Positions 7,479 to 23,382 of a stretch of DNA of 23,382 nt are shown piece after piece. The stretch spans positions 128,001 through 151,382 of the IMG/VR virus record IMGVR_UViG_3300025853_000035; one strand, given 5' to 3'. The translations under genes and the position numbers were made by a program. Source of the DNA: a virus. Lineage: Duplodnaviria; Heunggongvirae; Uroviricota; Caudoviricetes. Within the stretch, counting starts at the first letter, position 1. Each line of letters begins with the position of its first letter. The notes beneath the pieces were generated by a model. It worked only from the letters and a program-made list of their open reading frames with translations, made no database searches and was not told the DNA's origin.

Positions 7479-7523
7479 AGGATACGAGAAATTAACCTTA
7501 ATGTCAAGCTAAAATGTCGGTGG
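7479..7523 (-). promoter_or_regulatory. Sigma70-type promoter for scaffold/capsid genes with upstream CCACCGACATT box
   Basis: TTGACA(7507-7502)-N17-TATCCT(7484-7479). The spacer begins with TTAAGGTTAA. CCACCGACATTTTAGC lies immediately upstream. Confidence 0.7.
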
Positions 7524-7730: not shown

Positions 7731-9511
7731 TACTGATTACCTCCCGCCGGAGCGGCCGGCTTGGGCTTTGCCGGTGGGGTGGTGCTCCCCTTCTGCATCG
7801 CCTGCTGGGCTTGTGCCGGGACCGGAGGAATCTTCGGCTGTTCCTTGGCGACCTTCTCGGCGGACTTTCGGGAAGCCTCGGCCTGCTCGGCGTCGTGCTC
7901 CAGTTCGGTGTCCGCCCGGTCGGTCTCGTTGTCGTCGAGATCGCGCGCCAGTTCGTCCGAGCGCTGGGCGCGGGCATCCGGGAAGCCATCTTCCCGCGCT
8001 TCGAAGTCCGGGTTGTTCGGGAACTGCTTGGCGTCTTCCAGCATCTTGGTGAACATCTCCAGAGTCACATACTCCGGGATGACATCCGCCTTGAGGAAGT
8101 ATTCGTAGATGACCTCGATCGGCAGGATGCCTGCCTGATACATCATCGTGATGGCGCGGAACTCGCGGGCCGCAGCCGCGTCGATGAGGAAGTCCTGATT
8201 GACCCGGAACTCCATCTTGTCGGCCGGCTCGTTCAGCCACGCGGCGATGATGGCCAGAAGCTCGGTGAAGTTCTCGTTCATCACCGTGGTGACGTTGAGC
8301 AGCAGCGATTGCTCGTTGCGATCCTTCAACTTGATCTGGTTGTCGGACTGGCCGGCGGTCTTGGAATCGCCGAGCAGCCGGCCGCCGAGTGATGCGACCT
8401 GCGTCTCCTTGGCGATCAGCGCGTTCTCCAGAGTCTTGAGACCCTGTCCGTTGAACTCAAGGATGCCGGCCTTCTCGCCGTTGCCGATTTCCCACACGAC
8501 CGACGGGCCGATGTGATATTCGTCTTCTTCCTGCCCGCCCGTGACGTAATAGACCGGGTTGGCGGTGTAGAAGCGGCCATGCTCCAACTGCGCATAGGTC
8601 TTGTAATGCGACATGTTGAGCGTGAGGATGTCGAGGACCGGCGGCTTTTCGATGTCCGGCAGGTTGGTGGTGCCGTTGAAGAAGCGGAACGGGATGCGCT
8701 TCATCGGGACGCCGTAGACCATCGGCTTGGTGATGACCGGGGTTTCCGTCAGGTCAGCATCCTCGGCGTCGCGGGCATAGACTTCCTGCTGATATTCCCA
8801 GCGGAGGTCGGTGTCGTTCCAGATCAGGCGCAGGACGCGATAGCGCGCGAACAACTGGCCGTAGGAGGTGTTGGGCTTGGCTTCACTGCCCTCGAAGCGG
8901 AACAGGCGGCGATCGACCGTGAACTCGCGGAGCAGGATGTAGTCGTGCTCGTCGCGGCCATCGATCTCGACCGTCGTCCAGTCAAGGATGTTCTCGCAGG
9001 TATAGCCGGCAAGGTAGGGCTTCGCGAGCGGGTCGTTGGAATCGGGCTTGTCGGCGAGGATGCCGTAGCGTCCCACCGACAGCATTTCTTGGCTCACCAC
9101 CTTGGTGAAGACGCGCAGGGACAGGCCGTCCTTGCTGACCCGCTTGCACAGTTCGGTCAGCTTGGGGCCGGCACGCAGCAGGCGGGGGTCGCGGCGGAAG
9201 ATCGAGCCGGTGAGGCCCGTGACCGTGCGATAGACCATGTTGTAGAAGACCGCGCGATCGAGGTAGGCGACATACTGGCCGTCATCCATGCCTTCCGGCT
9301 GGGGCAGATATTCCTTGCCGTGCTTCTTGATCTCGACCTCGCCGATCATGGCGTGGCGGATCGCCTGCCAGATCATGCGCCAATTGTTGTAATCCCAATT
9401 GGTGTAGAGCGGGGCGGAGGAGAGCAATTCCTGCTTGTTGCGCTTGGTCGCATAGGCGGCCTGACGCTGGGCAAAGGTGCGCGCCTGTCGTTTGGTGATA
9501 TTGTCAGCCAA
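7730..9511 (-). CDS. Portal protein (DUF4055-like)
   Basis: YLPQPEG...Y.AYL.RAVFYN...GRYGILAD...IPF...KPP.LDI..LN.SHY motifs. The start is placed at TTG 9511 because the ORF-track extension to 9712 crosses a terminator; exact start uncertain. Confidence 0.85.
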   Translation of the reverse strand: MADNITKRQARTFAQRQAAYATKRNKQELLSSAPLYTNWDYNNWRMIWQAIRHAMIGEVEIKKHGKEYLPQPEGMDDGQYVAYLDRAVFYNMVYRTVTGLTGSIFRRDPRLLRAGPKLTELCKRVSKDGLSLRVFTKVVSQEMLSVGRYGILADKPDSNDPLAKPYLAGYTCENILDWTTVEIDGRDEHDYILLREFTVDRRLFRFEGSEAKPNTSYGQLFARYRVLRLIWNDTDLRWEYQQEVYARDAEDADLTETPVITKPMVYGVPMKRIPFRFFNGTTNLPDIEKPPVLDILTLNMSHYKTYAQLEHGRFYTANPVYYVTGGQEEDEYHIGPSVVWEIGNGEKAGILEFNGQGLKTLENALIAKETQVASLGGRLLGDSKTAGQSDNQIKLKDRNEQSLLLNVTTVMNENFTELLAIIAAWLNEPADKMEFRVNQDFLIDAAAAREFRAITMMYQAGILPIEVIYEYFLKADVIPEYVTLEMFTKMLEDAKQFPNNPDFEAREDGFPDARAQRSDELARDLDDNETDRADTELEHDAEQAEASRKSAEKVAKEQPKIPPVPAQAQQAMQKGSTTPPAKPKPAAPAGGNQ

Positions 9512-9528: not shown

Positions 9529-9563
9529 AAAAAGCGGCCGGTGATCCGAAGATCGCCGGCCGC
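9529..9563 (-). terminator. Intrinsic terminator with cUUCGg tetraloop
   Basis: GCGGCCGGCGATC-TTCG-GATCACCGGCCGC-TTTTT on the minus strand. Confidence 0.75.
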
Positions 9564-10018
9564 AGGTCAGGAGGAGACAGGCTGATGTCGGAGCCACCCG
9601 CCGGAGGGAAAAGGACAAAGCCTCCGGGAACTAGGTCAGGAAGGACCGGCCTTTTGCACCATCGGTGTGCCGGACCATGACCTGAAACAATCCGTGCGCT
9701 TCGAGCGGCCACAGGGACCTACCACACATCGGAAAGGGCTTGCCCATCTGGCCCAACGAGGACCGGGCTTACCTACCACATCCGTCTCCAGCGCTTTGGA
9801 GGTTGGAAGCCTTCTCGATCGCATGACGGTTGGGTTCCGGGGGTCAGCCCGACCAAGGGCCTACTGTCCATTCCCGCGCGCCAAGTGGTCTCGATCTTAC
9901 GCCTTCCAGCCGCGAAGGGTCTGGGATGCTACATGAATGGGGTTGAGGCTCGCGAGATCGCCTAGTGCGGAAAGGAGACACACTTCGGGGGAGATCAGCG
10001 CTCATCACGAGCCTCATG
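9529..10018 (-). ncRNA. Putative ~490-nt structured non-coding RNA (or long attenuated leader of the portal gene)
   Basis: Bounded by a near-consensus promoter and a terminator, with no credible minus-strand ORF. Several stems, some with minus-strand G-U pairs (9945-9955/10005-10015; 9964-9969/9979-9984), and pyrimidine-rich loops. Confidence 0.55.
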
Positions 10019-10024
10019 ATTATT

Positions 10025-10053
10025 AAGCTACCACGTCTTTCTTGATTTGTCAA
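10025..10053 (-). promoter_or_regulatory. Sigma70-type promoter of the putative ncRNA
   Basis: TTGACA(10053-10048)-N17-TAGCTT(10030-10025) with an extended -10 TG. Confidence 0.7.
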
Positions 10054-10117: not shown

Positions 10118-10148
10118 AAAGAAAAAGGGCCGGATCGCTCCGGCCCTT
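10118..10148 (-). terminator. Intrinsic terminator after phoH
   Basis: AAGGGCCGGA-GCGA-TCCGGCCCTT followed by a T-rich tail on the minus strand. Confidence 0.8.
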
Positions 10149-10152: not shown

Positions 10153-10962
10153 TCATGCTGCGTAGAGGTAAAGCACCTCTTCGATCACCGGGTGGCGGAC
10201 CACGTCGGCGCGGGTCAGGGCGTAATAGCCGATCCGCTCCCAGCGGCGGGGTTCGGCCGGCAGGCGCTCCTCGCCCGTGATGAAGCCCGGCAGTTCCGGC
10301 TCGAACGCTTCCTCCTCGGCTTCCTCGCGCTGCTTGAGACGGCGCGTGATGTCGGCCAGACCGCTGACGGTGGTGCCGAGTTCCTTGCGATCCCACTGCT
10401 CGGTGTCGCCGGTGACGATCATCTTGCTGTTCTCGCCGATGCGGGTCAGCAGCATCTTCATCTGGTCGGCGGTGGCGTTCTGCATTTCGTCGGCGATGAT
10501 GATCGCGTTCTTGAACGTGCGGCCACGCATATAGGCGAGTGGCGCGATCTCGATCTCCTCGCGCTGGAGCATCTGCTGGACGGCGATGACGCCGAAGCAT
10601 TCGTTCAGCACGTCCACGATCGGGCGGGTCCACGGAGCCATCTTCTCGTTGAGCGTGCCCGGCAGGTAGCCGAGGTCGTCGCCGGTCGCGACATTGGGGC
10701 GGGTAATGATGATCTTGTGGAATTCACCGGCGATGTATTTGTCCGCTGCTTCACGAACGGCCATGTAGGTCTTGCCGGTGCCGGCCGGCCCCTCGACGAT
10801 GAGGATGTCGTGCCGCATCTGGCGGAGCTTGCGCAGATAGCCTTTCTGGTTGGGAGTGGAAGCGGTGAGCTTGGGCGGGGCTTTGTGCTTGGTGGATTCC
10901 ATCTTCTCTGCGATGTGTGAGGCGTTGGTGGGGAAGAAGGTCTGCTTCTTGTTGCCGGACAC
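10153..10962 (-). CDS. phoH: PhoH-family ATPase
   Basis: Walker A GPAGTGKT, LGYLPG..EKM.PW, YMRGRTF, DEMQN, LLTRIG, TGD..Q.D, DVVRH. The GTG start at 10962 has an AGGAG RBS. Confidence 0.95.
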   Translation of the reverse strand: MSGNKKQTFFPTNASHIAEKMESTKHKAPPKLTASTPNQKGYLRKLRQMRHDILIVEGPAGTGKTYMAVREAADKYIAGEFHKIIITRPNVATGDDLGYLPGTLNEKMAPWTRPIVDVLNECFGVIAVQQMLQREEIEIAPLAYMRGRTFKNAIIIADEMQNATADQMKMLLTRIGENSKMIVTGDTEQWDRKELGTTVSGLADITRRLKQREEAEEEAFEPELPGFITGEERLPAEPRRWERIGYYALTRADVVRHPVIEEVLYLYAA

Positions 10963-11457
10963 AGAAAACTCCTGTGAGCGTGTGAGGGAGGGAGCAAAGG
11001 AACGCCCATCACTCGGCAAAATTTATATAACGTCGCGGCATAATGGCGGTGAAACGATACGGCCGATACGCCTTTGGGTCCCCGGCTATGCCGTGAACGC
11101 CTTCGGTGGTCCCCCTACGGGGTCGCAAAAATAAAATTTGCCGGGGTGGCTTTTGGGCGTGATGCTGCGATGGGGAGGTGGTCTGGGTCCCTCCGGGGGG
11201 TCCCAATTTTCATTCCGACCGGGGTGGCGTGATGCCGATAGGTGAAGGGGAGTGATGTTCCGGTGAAGGGTTGCCGGTTCGGAACGGAGTGGTTAACGGT
11301 TGAGGTGGCCGTTGGGCGTGATGGTAGCACAGCTATATGGGAAAGTCCACCTATTTTGATTCAGGTAGACACTTAGTGCGCCCAGAATCGGGGCAATGGG
11401 TATACCCCCAAAGGAACCCCGCCCGGCCAAAAAATTTCGCTAAAGGATGCGATCCGA

Positions 11458-11599: not shown

Positions 11600-11839
11600 C
11601 TATGCCATAGCGCCACGATAGGTCTGGCAACGGGTCACGCGCAGGGCTTGGCGGCCAGCGAAGGCAAGGGAGTCGCGCCATGCGCCTAGTTCCGCCTCAG
11701 TCAGGGCATAGCGTGCCGCCGCGTCCGCCAGCGTGATTGCGCCCGCGTCGATAGCGGCGACAATGGCAATCTTGCGCTTAGGCGTGAAACGCGCGTTTGA
11801 GGCGGGAAGGGCGTTCAAAAGGGTTTCGATGTTGTTCAT
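11600..11839 (-). CDS. sciP: SciP-like CtrA inhibitor (DUF1153, small HTH protein)
   Basis: LPASNARFTPKRKIAIVAAIDAGAITLADAAARYALTEAELGAWRDSLAFAGRQALRVTRCQTYR follows the recalled SciP pattern LP....RW..RRK..VV.AV.GG..S..EA..RY.L..EE...W......G...LR.TR.Q.YR. Confidence 0.8.
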   Translation of the reverse strand: MNNIETLLNALPASNARFTPKRKIAIVAAIDAGAITLADAAARYALTEAELGAWRDSLAFAGRQALRVTRCQTYRGAMA

Positions 11840-11987
11840 TGCCTGTCTCCATTTGGTTAGTGATTCGTTTATCTATTATTCCACCGATTCGGTCAAGCAC
11901 ATTATCCTTAATATCTCATGCCATTTCGTTAACCATATCTGTTAGGGTTAATATCCATGGCTTTGCTGTTAACCCTAACGCCTAGCA

Positions 11988-12109
11988 GGCACGGGCAGGG
12001 AAGGCCGCTAGGGCAGGCAGGGGCACGGGCAGGGAAGGCCGCTAGGGCAGGCAGGGGCACGGGCAGGGAAGGCCGCTAGGGCAGGCAGGGGCACGGGCAG
12101 GGAAGGCCG
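11988..12109 (+). repeat. 34-bp G-rich tandem repeat, ~3.6 copies
   Basis: Unit GGCACGGGCAGGGAAGGCCGCTAGGGCAGGCAGG; period 34 (ACGGGC at 11991, 12025, 12059, 12093). Confidence 0.95.
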
Positions 12110-12155
12110 GAATCGAAAGGGCCGCCCTAGGGCGGCCCTTTTGGGGTGGCGGCCC

Positions 12156-12434
12156 TTATGCTTGGGCCGCTTTCCACTTGGCAATTTCAGCCTGCCGACG
12201 GGCCTCAAAATCACCCGTTGCGTAGGGGCTGCGGCCATGGGTGAAGCTGGAGTCGGCCCGTTCGATCCGCGACTTTTTCGGCAGATTGCGGTCGCTGTTA
12301 TCGCTCAGCATGACTTCACAACGGCCATACTTGTAAAGCGCCGTTTCGTGAGCCTGACGCTCAGAAACCGCCGAAATGAAAGCCACGAAAACCTTGTTCT
12401 TGTAGATTGCGAAGGTGGGGATGTTCTTGGCCAT
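12156..12434 (-). CDS. Hypothetical protein, 92 aa (cassette 2)
   Basis: Start reassigned to the ATG after GGAGACAGAC (MAKNIPTF...). Confidence 0.75.
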   Translation of the reverse strand: MAKNIPTFAIYKNKVFVAFISAVSERQAHETALYKYGRCEVMLSDNSDRNLPKKSRIERADSSFTHGRSPYATGDFEARRQAEIAKWKAAQA

Positions 12435-12714
12435 TGTCTGTCTCCGTTTGCGTCTCGATGACTTACTTCTAGGGCCGATTTTTGATTCGGTCAAACACTT
12501 TCTGCAATTATTTTGGCGCGTCACTTCCTCCACCAAAACAGGCGGATTCATGATCTAGGCCGCTAGGGCGGGCGCGTCATGGCCCGCTAGGGGCGGCGCT
12601 GGGCGTCGATAGGCCGCGCCGGGCAGTCTGGCCGCGCTTTGCCGCTAGGCGCGCTCCTTGGGCGTCTGGGCGGCTCCTACGGGCGCAAAATGACCGCGAT
12701 CCATAATTAGGCCC

Positions 12715-12855
12715 TCAGAAACCGGCTTGCAGCTTGCTGAAAACCTCATTGACGAAATCCGCCACTTCCATCGCCACGAACACGGCACCGACCGCGACCG
12801 CAATCTTTACAGAAAATCCGCCGATCAGCAGGCCAACAATTCGGTTCATGTCCAT
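12715..12855 (-). CDS. Small membrane protein, 46 aa (cassette 3)
   Basis: MDMNRIVGLLIGGFSVKIAVAVGAVFVAMEVADFVNEVFSKLQAGF after GGAGACAGAC. Confidence 0.7.
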   Translation of the reverse strand: MDMNRIVGLLIGGFSVKIAVAVGAVFVAMEVADFVNEVFSKLQAGF

Positions 12856-13020
12856 GGTCTGTCTCCTTTCCAGACATAGGATGGACGCGGCGACCGATTC
12901 GGTCAAGCACTTTCTCCACTTATTTTTCGACTCGTTATGGTTAACGCGGCTGGGCAATTTATTAACCTTAACAGATTGTTGGGGCGCAAAAAAAGGGAGG
13001 CTTTCGCCTCCCTCCTTGGC

Positions 13021-13365
13021 TTAATGGCCGTAGTTGCAGCCGATATAGTAGAGCCGCCCGGCGACCAGATAAGCGATGTCCGCCGATCCGCAGCAGCCCG
13101 CATTAGCGGCTTCCTCATAGGCCGCCCATTCGGTGGCGCGGTCGGCGAAGGCGGCGCGATAGTTGTCGCGATAATCCTCGTCCGCAACCGCGTCATGGAA
13201 AAGCGCGTGCGCCTCTTCCACCGTGGCAACCGCTGCCAGCGCGCGGACCATGGTGCGCTCGCCCTCGAACGCGAGGAGGGCCGCAGCCGCCTCCGCAGCG
13301 GCGAGGTCCGCAGCCTCGATCACCGAAGCGGAGCAGTTGGAGCGGAGGAAGAGGAAGTAGTTCAT
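13021..13365 (-). CDS. Hypothetical protein, 114 aa (cassette 4)
   Basis: GGAGACAAG RBS; C-terminal GCCGS...IGCNYGH; terminator follows. Confidence 0.8.
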   Translation of the reverse strand: MNYFLFLRSNCSASVIEAADLAAAEAAAALLAFEGERTMVRALAAVATVEEAHALFHDAVADEDYRDNYRAAFADRATEWAAYEEAANAGCCGSADIAYLVAGRLYYIGCNYGH

Positions 13366-13437
13366 GGCTTGTCTCCTAGCCGGGTTGATGAGTGATGATT
13401 CTCATATTCCACCGATTCGGTCAAGCACTTTGTTTGC

Positions 13438-13638
13438 CTATTGGTATTGTCTTTTTGATGCGGACATAAGCACAACATGCCCAGCCATTTTCGCAATCAT
13501 GCCCAGCGCCAGCAGGCTGGCGGCGTTCATCTCCAGCGGCGTTTCTGGCCATGTCATATCAGGGGCGATTGTCGTGGCCGCCCAGACGCAAAGCAAGGCG
13601 AAGGCATAAAGGGCGGCGATCAGGATGGCTTTAGGCAT
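13438..13638 (-). CDS. Small membrane protein, 66 aa (cassette 5, second gene)
   Basis: GGAGACAA RBS; MPKAILIAALYAFALLCVWAA..., two hydrophobic segments. Confidence 0.7.
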   Translation of the reverse strand: MPKAILIAALYAFALLCVWAATTIAPDMTWPETPLEMNAASLLALGMIAKMAGHVVLMSASKRQYQ

Positions 13639-13657
13639 GGTATTGTCTCCGGTTCGA

Positions 13658-13885
13658 TCAGGCGGCCAAAGGCGCGGCATATTCAGCGAAAAGCGATTCC
13701 GCTTCCGCGAGCGTCAAGCCCTTGGCGACGCATTCCCAATCGTGGACCATTGCGCCCGAAACGGACTCGGCCCGATAGATCGGCGCGGCCTGCACCCACT
13801 TAGGCGCGCGGATGGAAACGGCGAAACCCGCCGCGCGCTGCACGATCATGACATTTTCGTTAGCTGACTTGCGAATGACTTTCAT
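13658..13885 (-). CDS. Hypothetical protein, 75 aa (cassette 5)
   Basis: MKVIRKSANE... after GGAGACAGAC; ends in LAA. Confidence 0.75.
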   Translation of the reverse strand: MKVIRKSANENVMIVQRAAGFAVSIRAPKWVQAAPIYRAESVSGAMVHDWECVAKGLTLAEAESLFAEYAAPLAA

Positions 13886-14042
13886 GGTCTGTCTCCATCG
13901 GCGCTGCGCCGTTGGACGGTAAGTCACATACTCCACCGATTCGGTCAAGCACTTTCGCAAGAAAAACGACGCCACAAGGGAAGCTGGCGTTAACCTTAAC
14001 AGATTGTTACCACCAAAAGAAAAGGGCCTTTCGGCCCTTCGC

Positions 14043-14429
14043 TCAATATGGCGAGCAACCATATTTGGCCCATTCCTTCACGGCGATTCCGCGCTTCCAT
14101 AGGGCGTGTTCGCGATCCTGCGCATCCTCGCAGCCTTCCGCCTCAAACCACCACCGGAGGGCGTCCGCACGGGCGATTCCGTGGTCGTGCTGGAGGTCGG
14201 TCAATTCCTCCTCCAGCTTGGCGATAGCGGCGGCAGAACGGACGGCCTCGCGGTCATTCTCTTCCGCGATCATCTTGCCCAATTCATCGAATGCGACGGC
14301 GTAGTCCTCCAGCGTGACAGGGCAATGCACGCCGCCATTGCGCGGGCGGAAACCGTAGGCGTCTTTGTGCATGTCCGAATAGATGACGGCGGCCTGTTCG
14401 AGGTCGGTGAGTGCGTTCCAGTCGGTCAT
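14043..14429 (-). CDS. Phage hypothetical protein, 128 aa (cassette 6)
   Basis: GGAGGAGACAGAC RBS; YSDMHKDAYGFRPR motif recalled from other phage proteins. Confidence 0.8.
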   Translation of the reverse strand: MTDWNALTDLEQAAVIYSDMHKDAYGFRPRNGGVHCPVTLEDYAVAFDELGKMIAEENDREAVRSAAAIAKLEEELTDLQHDHGIARADALRWWFEAEGCEDAQDREHALWKRGIAVKEWAKYGCSPY

Positions 14430-14569
14430 TGTCTGTCTCCTCCGGCACCGCGCCGGTGACTTCCTTCTAGAGTCGTTCCAGCGATTCGGTCAAGCACTTT
14501 GTTCGGTAGATAGTTGTTAAGGTTAACGCCGGGCCGGGCACAAAAGAAAAGGGCCTTTCGGCCCTTCCC

Positions 14570-15193
14570 TTAATCCTCCCTCCTTCCGTCTTCCCGGAAG
14601 GTGTAACCGTTCGCCTCCATAGCGTCGGCAATCTGTTCATCGCTTCGCAAATATTCGTCCTCGTCCCGGAGGCGATCATAGAGCCACCGGCCCAAATCCT
14701 TGGCGATCTCCTTGATCTCCTCGGCACGTTCATGCGCGCCGTCGGTCCAATCAAATTCGCTGGGTTCCGCTTGCGTGCCGTAATAGTGATGATAGGTGAC
14801 GACATAGGCGGAACGGTAGAAGGTCCGGGCGTGCAAGGCCGCGATGCGGTCCGCTAGGGCGTGTAAGACCGTATCCTGCGGCGCATAGTCCCGCACGGCC
14901 TTTGCCATCCCCTTGGCATAGGTCATCGTGCCTTCAAAGGCCGCATAATCGCTTTGCGAGTAGCCCAGCGACCACCAGATGTTTGCATCGTAGCGCGTTG
15001 CGCCCGACATCAGGGTGACAGGGTGCGTCTTGAAACTGACGCCCATAAGCTCGGCGATCGTCTTGAAGTCGTCGATCGTGGATTCATAATCCGTCTCGTC
15101 GCGGCAATCCAGCCACCACTGCTTGGCGGTCTCCTTGGCCGAGTCGCTCAATTCGTCATAGGTGTAAAGCGTGATCGTCGTTTCGGTCGGCAT
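14570..15193 (-). CDS. Mobile-element protein, 207 aa, resembling the family often labelled 'antitoxin of toxin-antitoxin stability system' (cassette 7)
   Basis: Y..DELSD.AKE.A..W...SQ.D.A.FEG...YAPQD..LH..AD...DL.RWLY..L..E.EYL.SDE......AN.YTF.E.G.R pattern, recalled rather than searched. Confidence 0.7.
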   Translation of the reverse strand: MPTETTITLYTYDELSDSAKETAKQWWLDCRDETDYESTIDDFKTIAELMGVSFKTHPVTLMSGATRYDANIWWSLGYSQSDYAAFEGTMTYAKGMAKAVRDYAPQDTVLHALADRIAALHARTFYRSAYVVTYHHYYGTQAEPSEFDWTDGAHERAEEIKEIAKDLGRWLYDRLRDEDEYLRSDEQIADAMEANGYTFREDGRRED

Positions 15194-15357
15194 TGTCTGT
15201 CTCCTCCGCATTGGTGCGGTAGGGCTGGAGTAGAGGGCTAAAGTGATTCGGTCAAGCACTTATTCCAGATCAAGAATGGTTAACGGGCTGGGGCGATTTC
15301 GTTAAGGTTAACGGATGAGGCGGGCGGAAGAAAAGGGAGGCTTGCGCCTCCCTTCGG

Positions 15358-15702
15358 TCATTCCGCCGGGGAGTAAATTACCCGCCCTTCGTCGCGCAGC
15401 TTCTCCAGATCGCATTCGATAGCGTAATTGTTGAAATACCAGCAGCGGCCGATGATTTCGTTTGCGCCGTCGTCGTGCGTCGTCATTTCCTCCGCAACGC
15501 ATGGGGCGGAAGTCAGCCCGACGAAAGGATTTGCCTGCCCCGCGTCAAAGTGGGTGAAAGAGCCATTGCAGGCGTAAGACTCGAACAAGTCCGCCATGAC
15601 AAGCCAGTAATTGCGGTCGGCGTGGTCGGCGATATATTCCCGCGCTTCTTCGTCGGCGGTGATCTCCAGATCGCCATTTTCGAGGATCGTGCATTCAATC
15701 AT
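15358..15702 (-). CDS. Acidic hypothetical protein, 114 aa (cassette 8)
   Basis: MIECTILENGDL... after GGAGACAGAC; terminator follows. Confidence 0.8.
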   Translation of the reverse strand: MIECTILENGDLEITADEEAREYIADHADRNYWLVMADLFESYACNGSFTHFDAGQANPFVGLTSAPCVAEEMTTHDDGANEIIGRCWYFNNYAIECDLEKLRDEGRVIYSPAE

Positions 15703-15807
15703 GGTCTGTCTCCGTTGTGATGATTCGTTTTGGCATAATCCATCGATTCGGGCAACCACTTTATCCATAAAAAGAAAGCCCCGGCGCGCTAGGCTCCGGG
15801 GCGATGA

Positions 15808-15873
15808 TTAGAAGCTGGCCGCAACGGTAATCAGCAGCAGGCCGGTAAAGAGGCGGGAAAGGGCTATCAGCAT
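15808..15873 (-). CDS. Hydrophobic micropeptide, 21 aa
   Basis: MLIALSRLFTGLLLITVAASF; TGATG coupling to the upstream gene; ends just before a terminator. Confidence 0.55.
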   Translation of the reverse strand: MLIALSRLFTGLLLITVAASF

Positions 15874-16178
15874 CAGGCCGCCGCGTCCTCCTCTTCGTCA
15901 AACTCCTCGGCAAGATAGACGCCGTGGCCGCTATGTTCCACCTGCCCGGCGGGCTGGATCGTCATGGCCGGGCTAAGGCTCATTTCGGGCATGTCAGGGC
16001 CGAACGCTTCGCCGGTGATGTAAAGGCCGTCCCCGACCTCCTGCCGCCTGTTGCTGAACTCGATAGCCGCCCCGTCAGCGGTGAGGGCGTCGGCCTTGGC
16101 CTGCGCCTCCTCCAGCGTGTCGGCCAAAATATAGAGGCTGGCGCAAATCATGATTTCGGTCTGGAACAATTTCTGCAT
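15873..16178 (-). CDS. Acidic hypothetical protein, 101 aa (cassette 9, second gene)
   Basis: Own AGGAGACAGAC RBS; ends in EEEDAAA. Confidence 0.8.
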   Translation of the reverse strand: MQKLFQTEIMICASLYILADTLEEAQAKADALTADGAAIEFSNRRQEVGDGLYITGEAFGPDMPEMSLSPAMTIQPAGQVEHSGHGVYLAEEFDEEEDAAA

Positions 16179-16205
16179 GGTCTGTCTCCTTGCGCGGTGT
16201 GCTGA

Positions 16206-16505
16206 TTAGTGGTGGCGGCGGTAGGCGGCGTTCAGGTCGCCATAGGGATCGTAGCGCACGGCGCGAGCCACTGCCCGGCGCTTCGCCTCCTCCAACGTCT
16301 CGCAATATTCCCCGCCGTGATAGCCGCCCAACTGTGTGTTGGCAAAGTGGACGGCGTAGGGGTGCATCTCATTGTGCGGAAGGTGGCGGATAACCACCGC
16401 GCCCGGCGCGGTCGCGCCTCGTCCGGCCATACCATAGAACTGGACGGATTCCTCTTTGGCCTTGGCAATCAGGGCAGGGCTTCCGTGGGTGAAAGGTGCG
16501 GTCAT
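16206..16505 (-). CDS. Hypothetical protein, 99 aa (cassette 9)
   Basis: GGAGACAGAC RBS downstream of the repeat promoter. Confidence 0.75.
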   Translation of the reverse strand: MTAPFTHGSPALIAKAKEESVQFYGMAGRGATAPGAVVIRHLPHNEMHPYAVHFANTQLGGYHGGEYCETLEEAKRRAVARAVRYDPYGDLNAAYRRHH

Positions 16506-16670
16506 TGTCTGTCTCCCTCCGGCTGGGTGCCGGTGATTCGTAACTAGGGGAGGGGACCGATTCGGTCAATCACTTATTCCAGAAAAGAAATGGTTAACGG
16601 GCTGGGGCTGGGCGTTAAGGTTAACAGGAAGGGCAAGCGAAAGAAAAAGGGAGGCTTTCGCCTCCCTCCC

Positions 16671-17033
16671 TTAGCGTGCCCAATAGGTTACGCCGTTGAA
16701 CTCGCCGCTTGTGTAATCCATCTGGAGGGCGCGGGCGGCGGCCTCCCAATCGATATGACAGGCAGGCCATGCGGACTCCTTCGGGATCGCGCCGATCTCC
16801 TCCGCCAACTCCTCGGCATAGTCCTTGAAATAGGAGTCACGAATGAAGGTGACAGGGAACCACGAATTTTCCCATTCATGATCGCCGCCGTATCCCCGGA
16901 ACTGCTCGATAAAGGCGCGCATGGCGGCGGCCTCTTCCTTTTCGTCGCTTTCCGGGTCCGCCTCGATCTCCTCGATCAGGTCGATGATGTCGCGGATGTC
17001 CATAACGTCTTGATATTCGTCGATGGTGGTCAT
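16671..17033 (-). CDS. ArdA-like acidic antirestriction / DNA-mimic candidate, 120 aa (cassette 10)
   Basis: Very D/E-rich; DYAEELAEEIG.IP......HIDWEAAARAL.MDY resembles the ArdA C-terminal domain. Confidence 0.6.
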   Translation of the reverse strand: MTTIDEYQDVMDIRDIIDLIEEIEADPESDEKEEAAAMRAFIEQFRGYGGDHEWENSWFPVTFIRDSYFKDYAEELAEEIGAIPKESAWPACHIDWEAAARALQMDYTSGEFNGVTYWAR

Positions 17034-17183
17034 TCGGTCTGTCTCCGTCGGCTCTGTGCCGGTGATTCGGAGATAGGGGAGGGGACCGATTCGGTCAAGC
17101 ACTTATTCCAGAAAAGAAATGGTTAACGGGCTGGGCCGGGGCGTTAACCTTAACGAATGATTACCAGCGAAAGAAACGCCGCC

Positions 17184-17258
17184 CTATTTGAGGGCGGCGG
17201 CTATGAGGATAAGGAAAAAGCCGGTTATCGCCCCGGCTATGGCGCGTAGCAGCGTCAT
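17184..17258 (-). CDS. Hydrophobic micropeptide, 24 aa
   Basis: MTLLRAIAGAITGFFLILIAAALK; ATGA coupling; similar to 15808-15873. Confidence 0.55.
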   Translation of the reverse strand: MTLLRAIAGAITGFFLILIAAALK

Positions 17259-17665
17259 CGGCTTGCCAGATCATCAAAGCGGCGTTGCATCAGGTCCGAT
17301 ACGTTGCCGTCGTCGGGCATGTCCGCAAAAGTGATGTCGGCAAAGTCATCCCACACCCAATCATAGCCTTGCTTCCACTCGCCCAGCACGGCGGGATTGC
17401 CCCGGCCCGTCTCGACAAATTCGCGGAAGGCGTCGCGGACATAGGTTTCCCCGTCGCCGGTCAGGGGATTGTCAAGGAAGGTCCGACAATGGCCGCAATG
17501 CTGCGGGCAATCCGCTTCCCCGCCGCCTTCCGAATAGGGGCCTTGCGGGAAGGAGTTGGAGTCCGGCTCATGCCCATCGGCCGCGCCTGAACGGATCAGG
17601 TCAGCCTTGATGTCGGTCGCGCAATTGTCGCAATAGATGTCGGATTGAAAGATGTAGGCGTCCAC
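17255..17665 (-). CDS. Hypothetical Cys-containing (possibly Zn-binding) protein, 136 aa (cassette 11)
   Basis: GTG start after GGAGACAGAC; CDNC and CPQHCGHC motifs. Confidence 0.8.
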   Translation of the reverse strand: MDAYIFQSDIYCDNCATDIKADLIRSGAADGHEPDSNSFPQGPYSEGGGEADCPQHCGHCRTFLDNPLTGDGETYVRDAFREFVETGRGNPAVLGEWKQGYDWVWDDFADITFADMPDDGNVSDLMQRRFDDLASR

Positions 17666-17820
17666 GGTCTGTCTCCTAGTTGCCTAGCCTGATTCGCATA
17701 GTCCACTGATTCGGTCAAGCACTTTGTTCGGCGACAAGTTAACAAAGGGTGCGATTTTGTTAAGGTTAACGGAAGCGTCCGGGTAAGGAAAAGGGGAGGC
17801 GTTTACCTTCCCTCTTTGGT

Positions 17821-18327
17821 TCATCCCCACATCCACACCTTGCCCGACTCATGGTCAAAGCCAAATTCAAGCCGGTTTGCCCGCGTCGCGTCGTTCAACC
17901 GTTCCAGACAATCGGCGTTGCCGTCGTCGGTGAAGGATACGCCATGCCCTACGGAAAGCATGTAGAGGGTGGAGCCGATGCGCTCATATGACAGGCCGTT
18001 GCTGGTATAGCGCAGGCCTTCGCTTCCGGGTTCCAGATCAAGCGCCGATTCGATGTCGGCGGCGTTGGCGGTCATGAACGCTTCGCAATAGGCCTTGCAG
18101 CGCTGATAGGTTTCGTCGTCCAGCGTGTAGATTGTGCCGGTGTCGCCTTCCTCGCGCTCTTCCTCGCAAGCTTCATCCATCTCGCTATATTGCAAATCCT
18201 GCAACATGGTCGCGACGAAGTCGGCAAGGATCGGGCAGGCCTTAAAGTCAGCCTTGCGGGCGGCTTCCCGTTCGCGGGTGGCGTCGTCGATTTCGTGGAA
18301 GCCGGTATAGTCGCGGGCGTCGGGCAT
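17821..18327 (-). CDS. Acidic hypothetical protein, 168 aa (cassette 12)
   Basis: GGAGGAGACAGAC RBS; GHGVSFTD motif. Confidence 0.8.
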   Translation of the reverse strand: MPDARDYTGFHEIDDATREREAARKADFKACPILADFVATMLQDLQYSEMDEACEEEREEGDTGTIYTLDDETYQRCKAYCEAFMTANAADIESALDLEPGSEGLRYTSNGLSYERIGSTLYMLSVGHGVSFTDDGNADCLERLNDATRANRLEFGFDHESGKVWMWG

Positions 18328-18505
18328 TGTCTGTCTCCTCCGGCTTGCTTGCCGGTGATTCGTTTCTGAAACATTCCGCTGATTCGGTCAAGCACATATT
18401 CCAGATTTAGATGGTTAACGGATCGCTCGATTTCGTTAAGGTTAACAAATGGTAGTGGTCAAAAAATTTGGTTAACGGGGAGGGCTTCCCCGTTAACCTT
18501 TGGTG

Positions 18506-18898
18506 TCAGGCCATTTCCTCCTCGGCCTTGTCGATGACGGGCCGGAGTTCTTCCCAGATCGCTTCCGCGAAGTCGTTGGCGCTGTAGTCGCTGATAACGT
18601 CATAGCCGTCATTCCCATAGACCAGATACCACTGGCCCAACAGGGTGCCTTCCGCGTCGCGGGCGACGATCCGGTCCTCGTCGGTCGTGAAGAGCGCGCC
18701 GATGATGGTGCCCTTGTCGGTCGAGCGCTTGACGGTCCATTCCTCGCCATCGTTGACGCTGACAGCGCAGCCCTTGGCCAGCAGGGCGTCCACCAGTGCG
18801 GCGCAGATGCGGCCTTCGATGCGGATGCGCTTGGCGAGGCGCTTTTCGCCCTTGGCTTCGGCGTTCTGGGCGTAGATGGTGAAGTTTCCGTAGTGCAT
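18506..18898 (-). CDS. Phage hypothetical protein, 130 aa (cassette 13)
   Basis: GGAGACAGAC RBS; V.DGEE and LVYGNDGYDVISDY motifs. Confidence 0.8.
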   Translation of the reverse strand: MHYGNFTIYAQNAEAKGEKRLAKRIRIEGRICAALVDALLAKGCAVSVNDGEEWTVKRSTDKGTIIGALFTTDEDRIVARDAEGTLLGQWYLVYGNDGYDVISDYSANDFAEAIWEELRPVIDKAEEEMA

Positions 18899-19055
18899 CG
18901 TCTGTCTCCGTTTGCGGTGATTCGTTCTTAGGACGGATCAGGTGATTCGGTCAAGCACTTCCTCCATTTTTCTTTTGGTTAACTTTTCCCGGCCGTTCGT
19001 TAAGGTTAACAGACGCGGGCGGTCAAAGAAAAAGGGAGGCTTTCGCCTCCCTCTC

Positions 19056-19448
19056 TTACTCGCCGAACCAGTAGCAGCGGATATAGGTTTCGATTGCGGA
19101 GTCTTCCTCGTTCGTCGTGGTGAGGTCGGTCCACGGCGTGCCCCAATCCTGCCATTGCAGCCGCCCATAGCTGGGCTGACAGTAGGCGTCCAGATCGCCC
19201 ACGATGCGAAGGGCAGGGCCGCCGGTCGAAAGGAGGATTTCAAATTCCTCCGGCGTGGCGTCTTCCTTCGCGCCGGGGGAATACCAGCCAGTCCGAACGG
19301 AAACCGAAAGGGCGTCTTGCTGGCATTCCTCGCGGAACGTGTCCGCCGCGTCGTGGTCGCCTTCCTGCTCCGCTGCGGTGAGGGCCTGCGCCTTCTCCAC
19401 GATGTCGGAAAGCCATGCTTTGGCGTTGGCGATTGCGTGCTGAGACAT
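19056..19448 (-). CDS. Acidic phage hypothetical protein, 130 aa (cassette 14, second gene)
   Basis: AAGGA RBS; ILLSTGGPALRI.G.L...LQWQDWGTPW motif. Confidence 0.8.
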   Translation of the reverse strand: MSQHAIANAKAWLSDIVEKAQALTAAEQEGDHDAADTFREECQQDALSVSVRTGWYSPGAKEDATPEEFEILLSTGGPALRIVGDLDAYCQPSYGRLQWQDWGTPWTDLTTTNEEDSAIETYIRCYWFGE

Positions 19449-19459
19449 TGCCGGTCCTT

Positions 19460-19591
19460 TCAGGCGAAAGTGAAGAGGTTGCGGCGGGCGTTCTTCGCCT
19501 TGCGCTGCGCCTTGCGGTCGCGCTTGTCGGCGCGCTCAACGCGCTTGAGTTCGCGGCCATAGCCCTTCTTGTCTTCCAGAATGATCTTCAT
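19460..19591 (-). CDS. Basic Lys/Arg-rich peptide, 43 aa (cassette 14, first gene)
   Basis: MKIILEDKKGYGRELKRVERADKRDRKAQRKAKNARRNLFTFA directly after GGAGGAGACAGAC; below the ORF-track size cutoff. Confidence 0.7.
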   Translation of the reverse strand: MKIILEDKKGYGRELKRVERADKRDRKAQRKAKNARRNLFTFA

Positions 19592-19758
19592 GGTGTCTGT
19601 CTCCTCCGCTTGATTGCGGTGATTCGTTTCTGGACCATTTAGATGATTCGGTCAAGCACTTATTCCAGAAAAAGAATGGTTAACTGGCTGGGGCGGTTTC
19701 GTTAAGGTTAACGCAGGTGGCCGGGCGAAAGAAAAGGGAGGCGCTGGGCCTCCCTTGT

Positions 19759-20016
19759 TCAAACGCCGCGCCCGTGCGGACCAGCCTGCTCGCAGAACAC
19801 GGCCCGGCCTTGCTCCGCGTTGGCCTTGGTCAGCCATGCGCAATCTTCGCCGGTCAGGCTATGGTCGATGACATATTCGTCCGCGCCCCGCGTCTCGATC
19901 AGCAGCCACAAGTCGGGCGCTTGTGCGATCTCCGGCGGGGCAGAGGGCTGGGCCTCCCCGCAGGCCGCCAGCGGCAGCAGGGAGACCATGGCGAGCGCGA
20001 TGACAAGGCGGCTCAT
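19759..20016 (-). CDS. Putative lipoprotein, 85 aa (cassette 15, second gene)
   Basis: Signal peptide MSRLVIALAMVSLLPLAAC with lipobox LAAC; ATGA coupling. Confidence 0.7.
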   Translation of the reverse strand: MSRLVIALAMVSLLPLAACGEAQPSAPPEIAQAPDLWLLIETRGADEYVIDHSLTGEDCAWLTKANAEQGRAVFCEQAGPHGRGV

Positions 20017-20255
20017 GCGTTCGCCTCAGCGGCGGCGTTCAGCGCCTCCTTGGCGTCGTCCGGGAAGCGATCCCAGAAGTCGGCGACGCAATCCATGCCG
20101 TAGCAGGGTTCTTCCGACACCTCCGGCGAAGGGGCCTTGTAATCGGCCACACAACCCCAAAGCATCTGATACAGGTCGGCGTTGATGCCGTCCCAGCATT
20201 CAGCCACTTCGTCCGGGCGGACGACTTCAAGAGCGGGGTGAGGTGCGATGGTCAT
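20013..20255 (-). CDS. Acidic hypothetical protein, 80 aa (cassette 15)
   Basis: GGAGACAGAC RBS downstream of the repeat promoter. Confidence 0.75.
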   Translation of the reverse strand: MTIAPHPALEVVRPDEVAECWDGINADLYQMLWGCVADYKAPSPEVSEEPCYGMDCVADFWDRFPDDAKEALNAAAEANA

Positions 20256-20424
20256 TTCGTCTGTCTCCGTGCGGCTTGCTTGCCGCTGATTCGGGGATAG
20301 ACAAGGGGACCGATTCGGTCAAGCACTTATTCCAGAAAAAGAAATGGTTAACGGGCTGGGCTTGGGCGTTAAGGTTAACAGGCGGCGGGCGGCGCGGAAA
20401 AGGGAGGCTTGCGCCTCCCTCCAG

Positions 20425-20631
20425 CTAGGCCGCCTTTACCGTCACCTTGACCGGGCCGCCGAGGTCGCACCGGCCATCGGTCAAGCCTTCGCTGATTTCG
20501 ATAAGCCCGGCGCGCAGCGTGTCGCGCCCGATCATGTCATCGGCGAAATAGTCGAAAAGTTCGGTCGCATAGCGCCGGGCGGTGGCGACGCATGGTTCGG
20601 CGCGGAAAGCGTCTTGGCGTTCGTCAAGCAT
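20425..20631 (-). CDS. Hypothetical protein, 68 aa (cassette 16, second gene)
   Basis: GGAGGT RBS before MLDERQDAF...; ends in KAA; terminator follows. Confidence 0.7.
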   Translation of the reverse strand: MLDERQDAFRAEPCVATARRYATELFDYFADDMIGRDTLRAGLIEISEGLTDGRCDLGGPVKVTVKAA

Positions 20632-20845
20632 GGGCGGGCACCTCCGTGATGACAAGAGCGCCTTTGCGGGCGGCGTTGTGTCCTACGGCCTTCGCCACGG
20701 CGGACGAATAGAAAAGGCTCTGCCCGATGAAGTCGCCGCAGAAGCGGGCGACGAAGCGCGCTTCGGGGTAGCCGCAAAATTCCGTGGTGATGGTATAGCG
20801 CCGATCCGGGCGACCGTCGTTCGTTACAGGGTGATTAGCGGGCAT
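20624..20845 (-). CDS. Hypothetical protein, 73 aa (cassette 16)
   Basis: MPANHPVTND... after AGGAGACAGAC; EFCGY...RFVARFCGDFIG. Confidence 0.75.
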   Translation of the reverse strand: MPANHPVTNDGRPDRRYTITTEFCGYPEARFVARFCGDFIGQSLFYSSAVAKAVGHNAARKGALVITEVPAHA

Positions 20846-21001
20846 GGTCTGTCTCCTTGTTGTGATTCGTGGATAGACAAGGGGACCGATTCGGTCAAGC
20901 ACTTATTCCAGAAAAAGAATGGTTAACGGGATAGGGCTGGGCGTTAAGGTTAACAGGAGGGGCCGGGTAAAGAAAAGGAGGCATAAGCCTCCCTATCTCC
21001 C

Positions 21002-21424
21002 TCATTCGTTGATAAAGAATGGCTTATACGCGCCCCGGTCATGGAACCCACCGCGATAGGGAACCACGCGGGGCCAGTAATGTCCGCGATTCTGGACTCG
21101 CCCATCGTCGGCATAGTCCGCCGGATCGATTCCATGCTTCCCATAGTAATCCTCGCGATTGCTATGGGTGGAATAAAACACGCCATCGAAGAATCCGCCG
21201 AAAATTAAATGGTCGCGGTAAAATTCGTCACGCCGGGCGGCCATATAACCATCCAGATAGGCCCATACCCAGCCGGGCGTTCCCTTGGGCGTGTCGGCGC
21301 GCATTGCCGACAGGGACGCTTGAATCTCAGCGTTAGGCAAGCCGCAAGTGATGGCCATGCTGCACAGGTCAGCCATCCGAGTCTTGAAAGAGTCACGAAG
21401 GGCGAGGGCGCGTTCAAGGCGCAT
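21002..21424 (-). CDS. Hypothetical protein, 140 aa (cassette 17)
   Basis: MRLERALALR... after GGAGACAGAC. Confidence 0.75.
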   Translation of the reverse strand: MRLERALALRDSFKTRMADLCSMAITCGLPNAEIQASLSAMRADTPKGTPGWVWAYLDGYMAARRDEFYRDHLIFGGFFDGVFYSTHSNREDYYGKHGIDPADYADDGRVQNRGHYWPRVVPYRGGFHDRGAYKPFFINE

Positions 21425-21571
21425 AGTCTGTCTCCAGCCGCTTGATTGCGGTGATTCTTTTCTGGACCTTTCGCCCGATTCGGTCAAGCACTTATTCCAG
21501 AAAAGCATTGGTTACTAAATGACCGCGCCGCGTTAAGGTTAACAGGTTCGGCACGGTAAAGGAAAGGCGGC

Positions 21572-21724
21572 CTAAGCCGCCATCTCCTCCAGAACCTTGT
21601 TAATCGCCGCTTCCCGGCTCATGCCGCCCTTAATCAGGGGCTGGGCTTTCGTTTCGATCTCGTCGGCCAGTTGGAAGGCAATGGCGCGAAGTTCGCGGGG
21701 CGATCGGCGGGTCGGCTGGGTCAT
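21572..21724 (-). CDS. Hypothetical protein, 50 aa (cassette 18)
   Basis: MTQPTRRSPRELR... after GGAGACAGAC; ends in MAA. Confidence 0.7.
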   Translation of the reverse strand: MTQPTRRSPRELRAIAFQLADEIETKAQPLIKGGMSREAAINKVLEEMAA

Positions 21725-21825
21725 TGGTCTGTCTCCGGTTTCGATGATTCGGTTTCTCATATCCCACCGATTCGGTCAAGCACTTATTCCACAAAAAGAA
21801 AGGGAGGCTTTCGCCTCCCTCCTTT

Positions 21826-22086
21826 TCAGGCCAGCCGCCCGACATAACAGTAACTGTTATATTGTTCGGGGTGAATCTCACCGTCCTTGCAAAGCATGTC
21901 GGTCCAGTTGTTGAACGCTTCGGAAATGGCCGGTTCGTCGTCCTCGCCATATGCCTCGATAACGTCGGGCAGGACTTCGGAGTCGAAGCGTGCGCTCAAC
22001 TCCTCTTCGCTGGCGATTCCGCCAAAATCCACGGCGTAGGATTCGACCATGTCCAGCAGGTCCACGCGGTTCCAATTAATGGCCAC
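21826..22086 (-). CDS. Acidic phage hypothetical protein, 86 aa (cassette 19, second gene)
   Basis: GTG start with GGGAGG RBS; AFNNWTDMLCKDGEI motif. Confidence 0.75.
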   Translation of the reverse strand: MAINWNRVDLLDMVESYAVDFGGIASEEELSARFDSEVLPDVIEAYGEDDEPAISEAFNNWTDMLCKDGEIHPEQYNSYCYVGRLA

Positions 22087-22174
22087 GGCGCGTCCTCCCC
22101 TTGGCGATCCGCTGGGCGAGGGCGGCGATGCGCTTGGCGCGCTCCTCGCGGGCTTTTTTCTGGCGGGCGGTCAT
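22076..22174 (-). CDS. Basic Arg/Lys-rich peptide, 32 aa (cassette 19, first gene)
   Basis: MTARQKKAREERAKRIAALAQRIAKGRTRRGH directly after AGGAGACAGAC. Confidence 0.6.
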   Translation of the reverse strand: MTARQKKAREERAKRIAALAQRIAKGRTRRGH

Positions 22175-22337
22175 GTCTGTCTCCTTGGCGGCTTGATTGC
22201 CGTTGATTCGTTTCTAGGGCAGGGGACCGATTCGGTCAAGCACTTATTCCAGAAAAAGAATGGTTAATGGGCTGGGCCGCCGTGTTAACCTTAACGAATG
22301 GTGAGGCCCAAAAGAAAAGGGCCTTTCGGCCCTTCCC

Positions 22338-22589: not shown

Positions 22590-22755
22590 CTGTCTGTCTC
22601 CTTGCAGCTTGCTTGCTGCTGATTCGTTTCTGGCATTGTCAGATGATTCGGTCAAGCACTTATTCCAGAAAAAGAAATGGTTAACAGGCTGGGCGATCCT
22701 GTTAAGGTTAACGGGAAGGCCGGGCGCAAGAAAAGGGAGGCGAAAGCCTCCCTCC

Positions 22756-23252: not shown

Positions 23253-23351
23253 GGTCTGTCTCCTCCGGCTTGCCTGCCGGTGATTCGTTTCTGTCATTGT
23301 CCGCCGATTCGGTCAAGCACTTATTCCACAAAAAGAAAGAGGGGGCGTTAG

Positions 23352-23382
<31 letters not shown>

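Follow-up and report, generated by a model that had tools for sequence, protein, structure and literature searches.

A covarying structured RNA between phoH and the portal gene of CbK-like phages, and its complementarity to phage ribosome-binding sites

The RNA unit and its neighbours

The window analysed here is a stretch of 23,382 nucleotides, positions 128001-151382, which forms the final 23.4 kb of a 151,382-bp IMG/VR virus record. On its minus strand phoH (10153-11019) is followed by a unit of about 490 nt (9529-10018), and this is followed by the portal gene (DUF4055), which extends from about 9511 to 7730. Further downstream, the scaffold and capsid genes have a promoter of their own (TTGACATTAAGGTTAA..., 7479-7507). 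Among cultured phages the closest relatives are Erythrobacter phages XM05 and vB_EliS-L02, Sphingobium phage Lacusarx and Citromicrobium phage RXM, all of them CbK-like siphoviruses of alphaproteobacteria; the phage carrying the RNA is a sphingomonad phage. An earlier, sequence-only reading had proposed a non-coding RNA of about 490 nt between phoH and the portal gene. Our analysis agrees with this proposal: the region is a separate unit with its own promoter and terminator and no conserved open reading frame (ORF), and it occupies the same place in relatives.

The promoter lies at 10025-10053 on the minus strand. It consists of a -35 hexamer, TTGACA (10053-10048), a 17-nt spacer and an extended -10 element, TGgTAGCTT (10033-10025), in which the hexamer TAGCTT occupies 10030-10025 and TG stands one base ahead of it. 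Transcription is predicted to start at about 10017-10019. The description of this promoter as near-consensus is right for the -35, which is the consensus hexamer, and the architecture is well conserved, as 22 of 26 related loci have TTGACA-N17-TGnTAGnnT in the corresponding position, often after GTTATTTTnGC. It is not right for the -10, which agrees with TATAAT at only three of six positions and departs from the E. coli consensus, being alphaproteobacterial in type. The spacer of this promoter contains a TTAAC box in some relatives, as in other late-type promoters.

The unit ends in an intrinsic terminator at 9529-9563 (minus strand), with a stem-loop at 9563-9534, a 13-bp stem interrupted by one C·A mismatch, the UUCG loop already pointed out in the sequence-only reading, and U5 at 9533-9529. 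Every relative has a terminator ahead of the portal gene; its sequence is variable and it ends 17-40 nt before the portal start. A generic promoter and terminator scan listed neither the promoter nor the terminator of the RNA, because of the non-E. coli -10 element and the one stem mismatch. Upstream, phoH has its own intrinsic terminator, read from the sequence at 10120-10146 on the minus strand (GGGCCGG-loop-CCGGCCC, then U5), and the RNA unit thus stands alone.

The likely start codon of the portal gene is a UUG at 9509-9511 on the minus strand, where the alignment of relatives ends in a conserved UUGGCUGA. It has no Shine-Dalgarno sequence and lies 17 nt past the RNA terminator, which leaves no room for a promoter between them. 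Portal starts in relatives are UUG, GUG or AUG, also in a context free of a Shine-Dalgarno sequence. The starts assigned by gene callers vary among relatives, and in at least one of them (L044) an ATG well downstream of the aligned start was called.

Stop-free stretches of 40-116 codons are present on both strands of the region, and such open frames are expected at 60% G+C. The four longest ORFs (91, 89, 62 and 67 aa) had no match in Pfam or PHROG. Translated similarity among relatives extends over all frames of both strands, and the relatives differ by 1-2-nt indels, changes of loop length and insertions of whole hairpins, with every frame broken. These results bear out the earlier remark that the region has no convincing ORF.

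Searches for known RNA families were negative. At gathering level Rfam 15, whose families include tmRNA, RNase P, 6S, GOLLD, ROOL, HEARO, riboswitches, the alpha-r sRNAs and sX13, had no match in the whole window, and no Rfam aptamer appeared at gathering or permissive level. A permissive Rfam cmscan (E up to 10) returned only terminator noise, at no more than 20.5 bits against thresholds of 45-80. The best of these weak look-alikes are small RNAs (sRNAs) with C-rich loops, such as sX13 (E = 0.23, 20 bits against a gathering score of 50), and the terminator-like 3' halves of the weak matches fall on the phoH terminator at 10120-10146. ARAGORN found no tRNA or tmRNA. Thus the Infernal search against Rfam that had been suggested as a check was empty, as was ARAGORN, in keeping with the statement that the RNA is not a tRNA and belongs to no recognized family. 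We also weighed tmRNA, RNase P and mimicry of the 16S 3' end and found no supporting match for them. With its own promoter, a Rho-independent terminator and no coding capacity, the unit has at the level of sequence the attributes of a trans-encoded sRNA.

A covarying core and its distribution

Homologous loci were gathered by blastn against phages and by portal-based scans of IMG/VR and metagenomes; further loci came from portal homologues in a large protein collection, with look-ups of their contigs, from a phage collection and from phiCbK as an outgroup. About 25 relatives, including XM05, vB_EliS-L02 and Lacusarx, have a homologous unit in the same place, always upstream of the portal gene and usually after phoH. 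The unit measures 350-430 nt in the close clade, about 290-470 nt in Lacusarx-like loci (L017, L018, L038, L039 and L045) and about 130-260 nt in RXM-like and L047-like phages. The RNA of the window reaches about 490 nt because of two insertions specific to the window phage. A DNA pattern scan of IMG/VR returned only loci that were already known, plus one chance match; the same scan of GTDB species genomes gave eight matches, all of which were rejected by the covariance model described below. The published description of Lacusarx does not mention the RNA (PMC5648845).

Covariation was assessed in two ways. Over the full length of 12 RNAs, the 30 pairs called by RNAalifold were paired in 94% of cases, compared with 30-49% when the partner column was slid, and 13 pairs had double changes; in this MAFFT-based count none of 500 shuffles reached the observed values. 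A covariance model, R1, was then built on a 107-nt core. R1 scores 108 bits in the window (9681-9786, minus strand) and detects the core in 18 loci, including Lacusarx; it found no core in RXM, the L047 group, phiCbK or the IMG/VR relative L008. In the 19-row R1 alignment, compensatory changes affect 21 of 24 core pairs, and the proportion of paired cells is 95.5%, compared with 33-50% in slid controls; this alignment was fitted to R1 and hence leans to the structure, and the independent MAFFT-based count agrees with it in direction. The covarying helices of the core thus identify a structured RNA family that has not been described, and we are highly confident that it is real, new and absent from Rfam. 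The covariation test on homologous regions of relatives, which the sequence-only reading had put forward, therefore gave a strong result.

The covarying helices contain many U-G pairs, which on the other strand would become A·C mismatches. The fold is thus strand-specific, and the earlier assignment to the minus strand was correct. The folding energy of the single sequence was not distinctive compared with shuffled sequences (z = -0.66 and -1.37 for the two strands, the former being that of the RNA fold). As the energy is unremarkable, the evidence for structure is covariation and not stability.

From its 5' end, all on the minus strand, the RNA begins with a hairpin insertion (9944-10016) that is seen in the minimum free energy (MFE) fold and occurs in the window phage only, being absent from all aligned relatives. 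It is followed by a 5' domain (9778-9929) closed by helix P1, in which GCAUCC (9929-9924) pairs with GGAUGU (9783-9778). P1 was found by RNAalifold among seven close relatives, with A-U in the relatives where the window has C-G, and the L02 subclade forms the helix with a different sequence. Inside this domain the helix GCCC (9861-9858)/GGGC (9851-9848) is the window version of the relatives' GUCC-UUGGUC-GGAC and covaries; the internal helices of the 5' domain are weakly supported. The conserved core recognized by R1 (9681-9786) is made up of helices Pa and Pb and the enclosed hairpin Pc. Pa is a three-part hairpin (9773-9737), and Pb (9732-9724 with 9699-9692) encloses both Pc and an invariant internal loop, GGUA (9723-9720) and CUCGAA (9705-9700). 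A variable region (9600-9680) follows, which forms two hairpins here and other hairpins or none in relatives. The last helix, Pd (GGCU-CCGACAUC-AGCC, 9580-9595), stands just before the seed discussed below and has covarying pairs (CG/UA and UA/CG).

The stems listed in the sequence-only reading can now be placed in this fold. Two of them, 10016-10005/9955-9944 and 9984-9979/9969-9964, do appear in the MFE fold; they belong to the insertion of the window phage, however, and not to the conserved fold. Likewise CCGGAGG/CCUCCGG (9627-9601) is present as one of the two hairpins of the variable region but is specific to the window phage, the conserved helices being P1, Pa, Pb, Pc and Pd. The internal repeat GAUG(UG)UGGUAGGU was found as described, at 9782-9771 and 9730-9717. 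Each copy corresponds to one strand of a helix together with GGUA, the 3' strand of P1 in the first and the 5' strand of Pb in the second; the second copy alone is invariant in the family.

Complementarity to phage ribosome-binding sites

Just before the terminator the RNA carries an invariant block of the clade alignment (A4), CCUGUCUCCUCC, at 9570-9581 on the minus strand. We refer to this block, of which CUGUCUCC is a stretch, as the seed. In its 3' part, UCCUCCU is predicted to be unpaired (p about 1.0), and its part CCUGUC is predicted to be paired. The seed is complementary to the ribosome-binding site (RBS) (A/G)GGAGACAG. This word is by far the commonest GGAGNNNN word ahead of start codons in this genome, where it precedes 36 genes; it precedes 23 genes in XM05 and 34 in vB_EliS-L02. 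Across 62 RBSs of the GGAGAC type, the perfect complement to the seed is at least 8 nt long in 44, where it ranges over 8-12 nt, and at least 9 nt long in 26. Six copies of the 11-mer CUGUCUCCUCC are present in the 151-kb genome. One is in the RNA, and the other five, in reverse complement, each lie at an RBS. One of the five, GGAGGAGACAG at 14433-14443 (minus strand), is followed by aca and the AUG of an early-cassette gene and is an 11-nt perfect complement to the seed; the other four, identical to it, are at 15197-15207, 18331-18341, 19597-19607 and 23256-23266, also on the minus strand. All five stand 3-5 nt before an AUG.

The window phage has a second such element. The anti-RBS stretch GUGUGUCUCCUUUCC lies at 9983-9969, in the apical loop of the 5' hairpin insertion. 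This loop, UCUCCUUUC, is predicted to be unpaired (p about 1.0) and displays the anti-RBS stretch UGUCUCCUU; it is perfectly complementary over at least 9 nt to 16 of the 62 GGAGAC-type RBSs.

The GGAGAC sites are unevenly placed in the genome. Among the 61 sites listed, the cassette array at 139.8-151.3 kb accounts for 22, and others belong to further modules, including stretches at 0-7 kb and 16-47 kb. Only three are found at 91-137.7 kb, and the part of the window at 128-137.5 kb holds structural genes. Structural genes are thus largely without a GGAGAC-type RBS. In this phage group, as seen in L091 and L093, a terminator-like, G+C-rich hairpin with a C/U-rich tail often lies ahead of structural genes, and these are without a GGAGAC RBS.

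The cassettes themselves form an array of small genes at 11600-23310 of the window (minus strand), which share near-identical promoters (GTGCTTGACCGAATC...), upstream GTTAAC/TTAAC boxes and, as their standard RBS, GGAGACAGAC. Homologous arrays are found in XM05 (about 77 blast pieces), in vB_EliS-L02 (25 cassettes defined by a regular expression) and in the terminal repeat of Lacusarx. There are other phages in which the terminal repeats carry the genes expressed first. The Lacusarx cassettes occupy a terminal repeat of 10.5 kb (PMC5648845). By analogy, this DNA would be expected to be the first to enter the cell, which would fit a set of targets made up of early genes.

Two general measures of pairing gave no further resolution. 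RNAduplex energies of the whole RNA with 38 RBS regions were -26.8 kcal/mol, against -24.8 ± 1.3 kcal/mol for shuffled RNA and so not clearly better, a comparison that is not discriminating for a sequence so rich in G+C. Similarly, counting RBS windows with any 9-nt complement against random genome segments was uninformative, as chance matches are frequent and segments antisense to the cassettes score trivially.

A more specific comparison is provided by the two bases after GGAGAC, which vary by lineage. The RNA changes correspondingly in three lineages (AG/CU, GA/UC and AC/GU) and at best in part in two more. In the window phage, XM05 and vB_EliS-L02 the dominant RBS is AGGAGAC-AG and the RNA has CU-GUCUCCU, giving 9-12 nt of perfect complementarity. 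On the JGI contig Ga0642623_00771 (L047/L093) at least 15 cassettes have the RBS (C)AGGAGAC-GA(A/C), and the RNA has GGGUC-GUCUCCUGCCC in a hairpin loop (UC-GUCUCCU), complementary over 9-11 nt; on this contig no cassettes lie in the nearest 10-kb flank, and they are found a further 10 kb upstream. In Lacusarx the dominant RBS, GGGAGAC-AC, and the RNA stretch CCGU-GUCUCC are complementary over 8 nt. The correspondence is partial in RXM, where about seven genes have GGAGCGAauc and the RNA loop GUCGCUCCUCCC (UCGCUCC) is complementary over 7-8 nt; the commonest RBS of RXM, GGAGUGAC, has no complement in the RXM RNA. It is absent from G002 (L017), in which 15-20 genes have gGGAGACAC and the RNA has CCGUCUCCC, complementary over 7 nt with the dinucleotide mismatched. 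Three clean dinucleotide matches, each with a chance of about 1/16-1/8, together with one partial match and one failure, are supportive of base pairing and not proof of it.

GUCUCC-type motifs, between one and three in number, stand close to the 3' end of nearly every homologue. In L008 (2400-2500) only hairpin Pd, the seed and the terminator are kept before the portal gene; unrelated sequence resembling a gene on the opposite strand takes the place of the other parts of the RNA. This suggests that the 3' module is able to stand alone. In distant relatives, phiCbK among them, all that is left is a short CU-rich leader. In phiCbK (L092:1290-1440) about 500 nt of non-coding DNA with a TTGACA promoter look-alike precede the portal gene, and a hairpin, GGGGAGGA...UCCUCCCC, is followed by UCCUUCUCC just ahead of a possible earlier portal start; there is no match to R1.

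The opposite strand of the seed also resembles an RBS. In several relatives it reads as a cassette RBS plus AUG, an indication that the seed may derive from a cassette initiation region that was inverted. In the window the plus strand at 9570-9680 reads GGAGGAGACAGgctgATG and then an ORF of 31 codons, a look-alike of a cassette start. We rejected this ORF, which lies behind the RBS look-alike at 9570-9587, because neither its ATG nor its frame is conserved in relatives.

Proposed role and alternatives

Based on these observations, we propose a model in which the terminated form of the RNA works as a one-to-many antisense silencer directed at the standardized RBS of early and middle genes. We give this model a probability of roughly 0.5. 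The non-coding, structured RNA of about 490 nt would be made from a strong promoter of its own and terminated 17 nt short of the portal gene. As the terminated RNA accumulates, its exposed C/U-rich seed CCUGUCUCCUCC would pair with initiation regions of the form (A/G)GGAGACAG; in the window phage the second copy of the seed, in the loop of the 5' hairpin, would also be available for pairing. The Shine-Dalgarno sequence would be masked by this pairing, so that translation of about 36-44 early and middle genes would stop as a class, and the structural genes, most of which have no such motif, would escape. Portal, a low-copy protein, would be expressed by read-through, so that the transcript doubles as an attenuated portal leader. 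That the transcript probably is also such a leader follows from the lack of room for a promoter between terminator and portal start, and the two roles are compatible. The analysis shows the non-coding status, the conserved promoter and terminator, the covarying structure and the complementarity of seed and RBS with its changes between lineages; that the RNA is expressed, and when, that it pairs in the cell, that it represses its targets and does not activate them, and what the large core domain does are inferred.

The silencer model is favoured by the complementarity to the RBSs and its co-variation across lineages, by the scarcity of the motif among structural genes, by the second anti-RBS loop and by the classic sRNA architecture of a seed that is invariant, predicted to be unpaired and adjoining the terminator. 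Other features count against it. The near-consensus -35 could fire early, and a conserved, covarying core of about 300 nt is surplus to what a simple antisense seed needs. The mismatched dinucleotide of G002, the unmatched commonest RBS of RXM, the hybridization energies and the predicted pairing of CCUGUC within the seed weigh against it as well. In addition, a single RNA that titrates about 40 mRNA species would have to be very abundant. A wider and more tentative form of the model, which we think somewhat less likely than not, takes in the core as well. According to this form, the RNA at the boundary of early and structural genes in CbK- and Lacusarx-like phages would be a genome-wide timer that combines antisense silencing of roughly 40 early and middle genes and portal read-through with a core whose invariant GGUA/CUCGAA loop serves as a platform for a protein or the ribosome. 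Such a timer would be an RNA counterpart of RegB/RegA in T4 and a new class of large phage RNA.

The alternative that survives best is that the RNA acts purely in cis, as a long structured 5' leader with an attenuator by which the level of read-through into portal is set, or its timing is governed through an antiterminator protein or another signal, the match to the RBS being incidental. A C/U-rich tract before a terminator and upstream of a gene without a Shine-Dalgarno sequence could have such a role. The terminator is directly upstream of the portal gene in the same transcription unit with no intervening promoter, as expected of an attenuator; in all relatives it ends 17-40 nt before the portal start and no promoter fits between them. 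The weak start codon of portal (UUG or GUG), the separate promoter of the scaffold and capsid genes (7479) and the TTAAC box in the promoter spacer of some relatives point the same way, and the invariant GGUA/CUCGAA loops could be protein-binding sites. Because phiCbK and the distant relatives keep a short CU-rich leader, a purely cis role stays alive. However, it leaves unexplained both the complementarity of 9-12 nt to about 40 RBSs and the way in which this changes from lineage to lineage. There is free variation in the terminator stems, and alignment A3 showed no covarying anti-terminator partner or conserved alternative pairing with them. We consider a purely cis role possible but distinctly less probable than the silencer model, with which a cis function can in any case hold together.

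It is doubtful, in our view, that the main job of the core is a different one, such as binding a phage or host protein, a component of the ribosome or the packaging machinery, and that the seed is a relic of an inverted cassette RBS. The size and covariation of the core and its invariant loops would be accounted for in this way, as would the full cassette-type RBS plus AUG on the opposite strand of the seed in several relatives. A relic is difficult to reconcile, however, with a seed that is invariant while its flanks vary, with the lack of conservation of the opposite-strand AUG and ORF, or with the retention of a GUCUCC loop and terminator in distant relatives that have no core.

Slightly less probable still is a trans-acting anti-Shine-Dalgarno sRNA directed at host mRNAs, which would mimic the alphaproteobacterial sRNAs with C/U-rich loops and remodel host translation. 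CUCCUCC is a generic anti-Shine-Dalgarno core, the weak cmscan look-alikes have C-rich loops (sX13, above), and promoter and terminator belong to the unit itself. Against this, the complementarity runs 4 nt beyond the Shine-Dalgarno sequence into the phage-specific spacer ACAG, where in other lineages it changes with the phage RBS, and no Rfam family was found at threshold. Finally, we regard it as very improbable that the region encodes one or more small proteins, since its stop-free stretches are expected from base composition, its relatives share similarity in all frames and break every frame by 1- and 2-nt indels and loop-length changes, its substitutions compensate base pairs, and Pfam and PHROG gave no match.

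The silencer model combines elements of several known systems. In the alphaproteobacterial 'cuckoo' RNAs CcsR/alpha-r14 and in sX13 of Xanthomonas, C/U-rich motifs that lie in unpaired loops or linkers before a Rho-independent terminator pair with the Shine-Dalgarno regions of many mRNAs. The RNA described here likewise has a C/U-rich motif, predicted to be unpaired, ahead of its terminator; unlike these RNAs, it matches no Rfam model, is phage-borne and much longer, and has a seed that reaches into a phage-specific spacer. In phage lambda, the PR'-6S RNA-tR' unit places a strong promoter and a short terminated transcript upstream of the late genes, which are expressed only by read-through. 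The arrangement directly upstream of the structural genes is similar here, but the 6S RNA of lambda is not known to be conserved as a structured RNA or to have targets in trans.

In the c4 RNA of P1 and P7 and the sar RNA of P22, translation is blocked when sequences displayed in loops pair with the RBS region of an mRNA of the same phage (PMC12197685). Pairing with the RBS region of the phage's own mRNAs is also what we propose. The c4 and sar RNAs, however, measure 68-77 nt and have a single target operon (ant), whereas the present RNA is 350-490 nt long, has a large covarying core and about 40 predicted targets, is equipped with its own promoter and terminator by the portal gene, and shares no sequence or structural homology with them. 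Nor is it of the c4 type in its context: c4 RNA, of about 77 nt, is processed from the immI operon transcript and has its target sites a' and b' upstream of ant, and around our RNA, a separate unit between phoH and the portal gene, there is no ant or icd. The RegB endoribonuclease and the RegA repressor of T4 recognize an extended Shine-Dalgarno motif (for RegB, GGAG plus downstream bases) that is common to many early mRNAs, which are inactivated as a class (PMC3014915). Class-wide recognition of an extended GGAG motif on early mRNAs is what we propose as well; in T4, RegB and RegA are proteins, and here recognition would be by RNA-RNA base pairing.

To our knowledge, post-transcriptional shut-off of early genes in virulent phages is understood in molecular detail for very few systems, chiefly T4 RegA/RegB. 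A review of phage sRNAs does not mention early genes (PMC12197685). If the silencer model is correct, it would mean that RNA-based early shut-off can be read directly from sequence, as a shared RBS and a mirror-image RNA that change together across lineages. Whatever its function, the new covarying family, with a core of about 110 nt and a total length of 350-490 nt, would allow better annotation of a widespread group of alphaproteobacterial phages. XM05, vB_EliS-L02 and Lacusarx are in culture together with their hosts, and the prediction is thus directly testable.

Two minor observations concern the surroundings of the unit. On a related phage contig a homologue of ribosomal protein L11 (PF03946 and PF00298; L093:14316-14711, minus strand) adjoins phoH. 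The record of the window phage ends in a long poly-C run (about 23340-23382 of the window), which may be a genome terminus or an assembly artefact; a related JGI contig (L091, about 600-700) has a poly-G run there.
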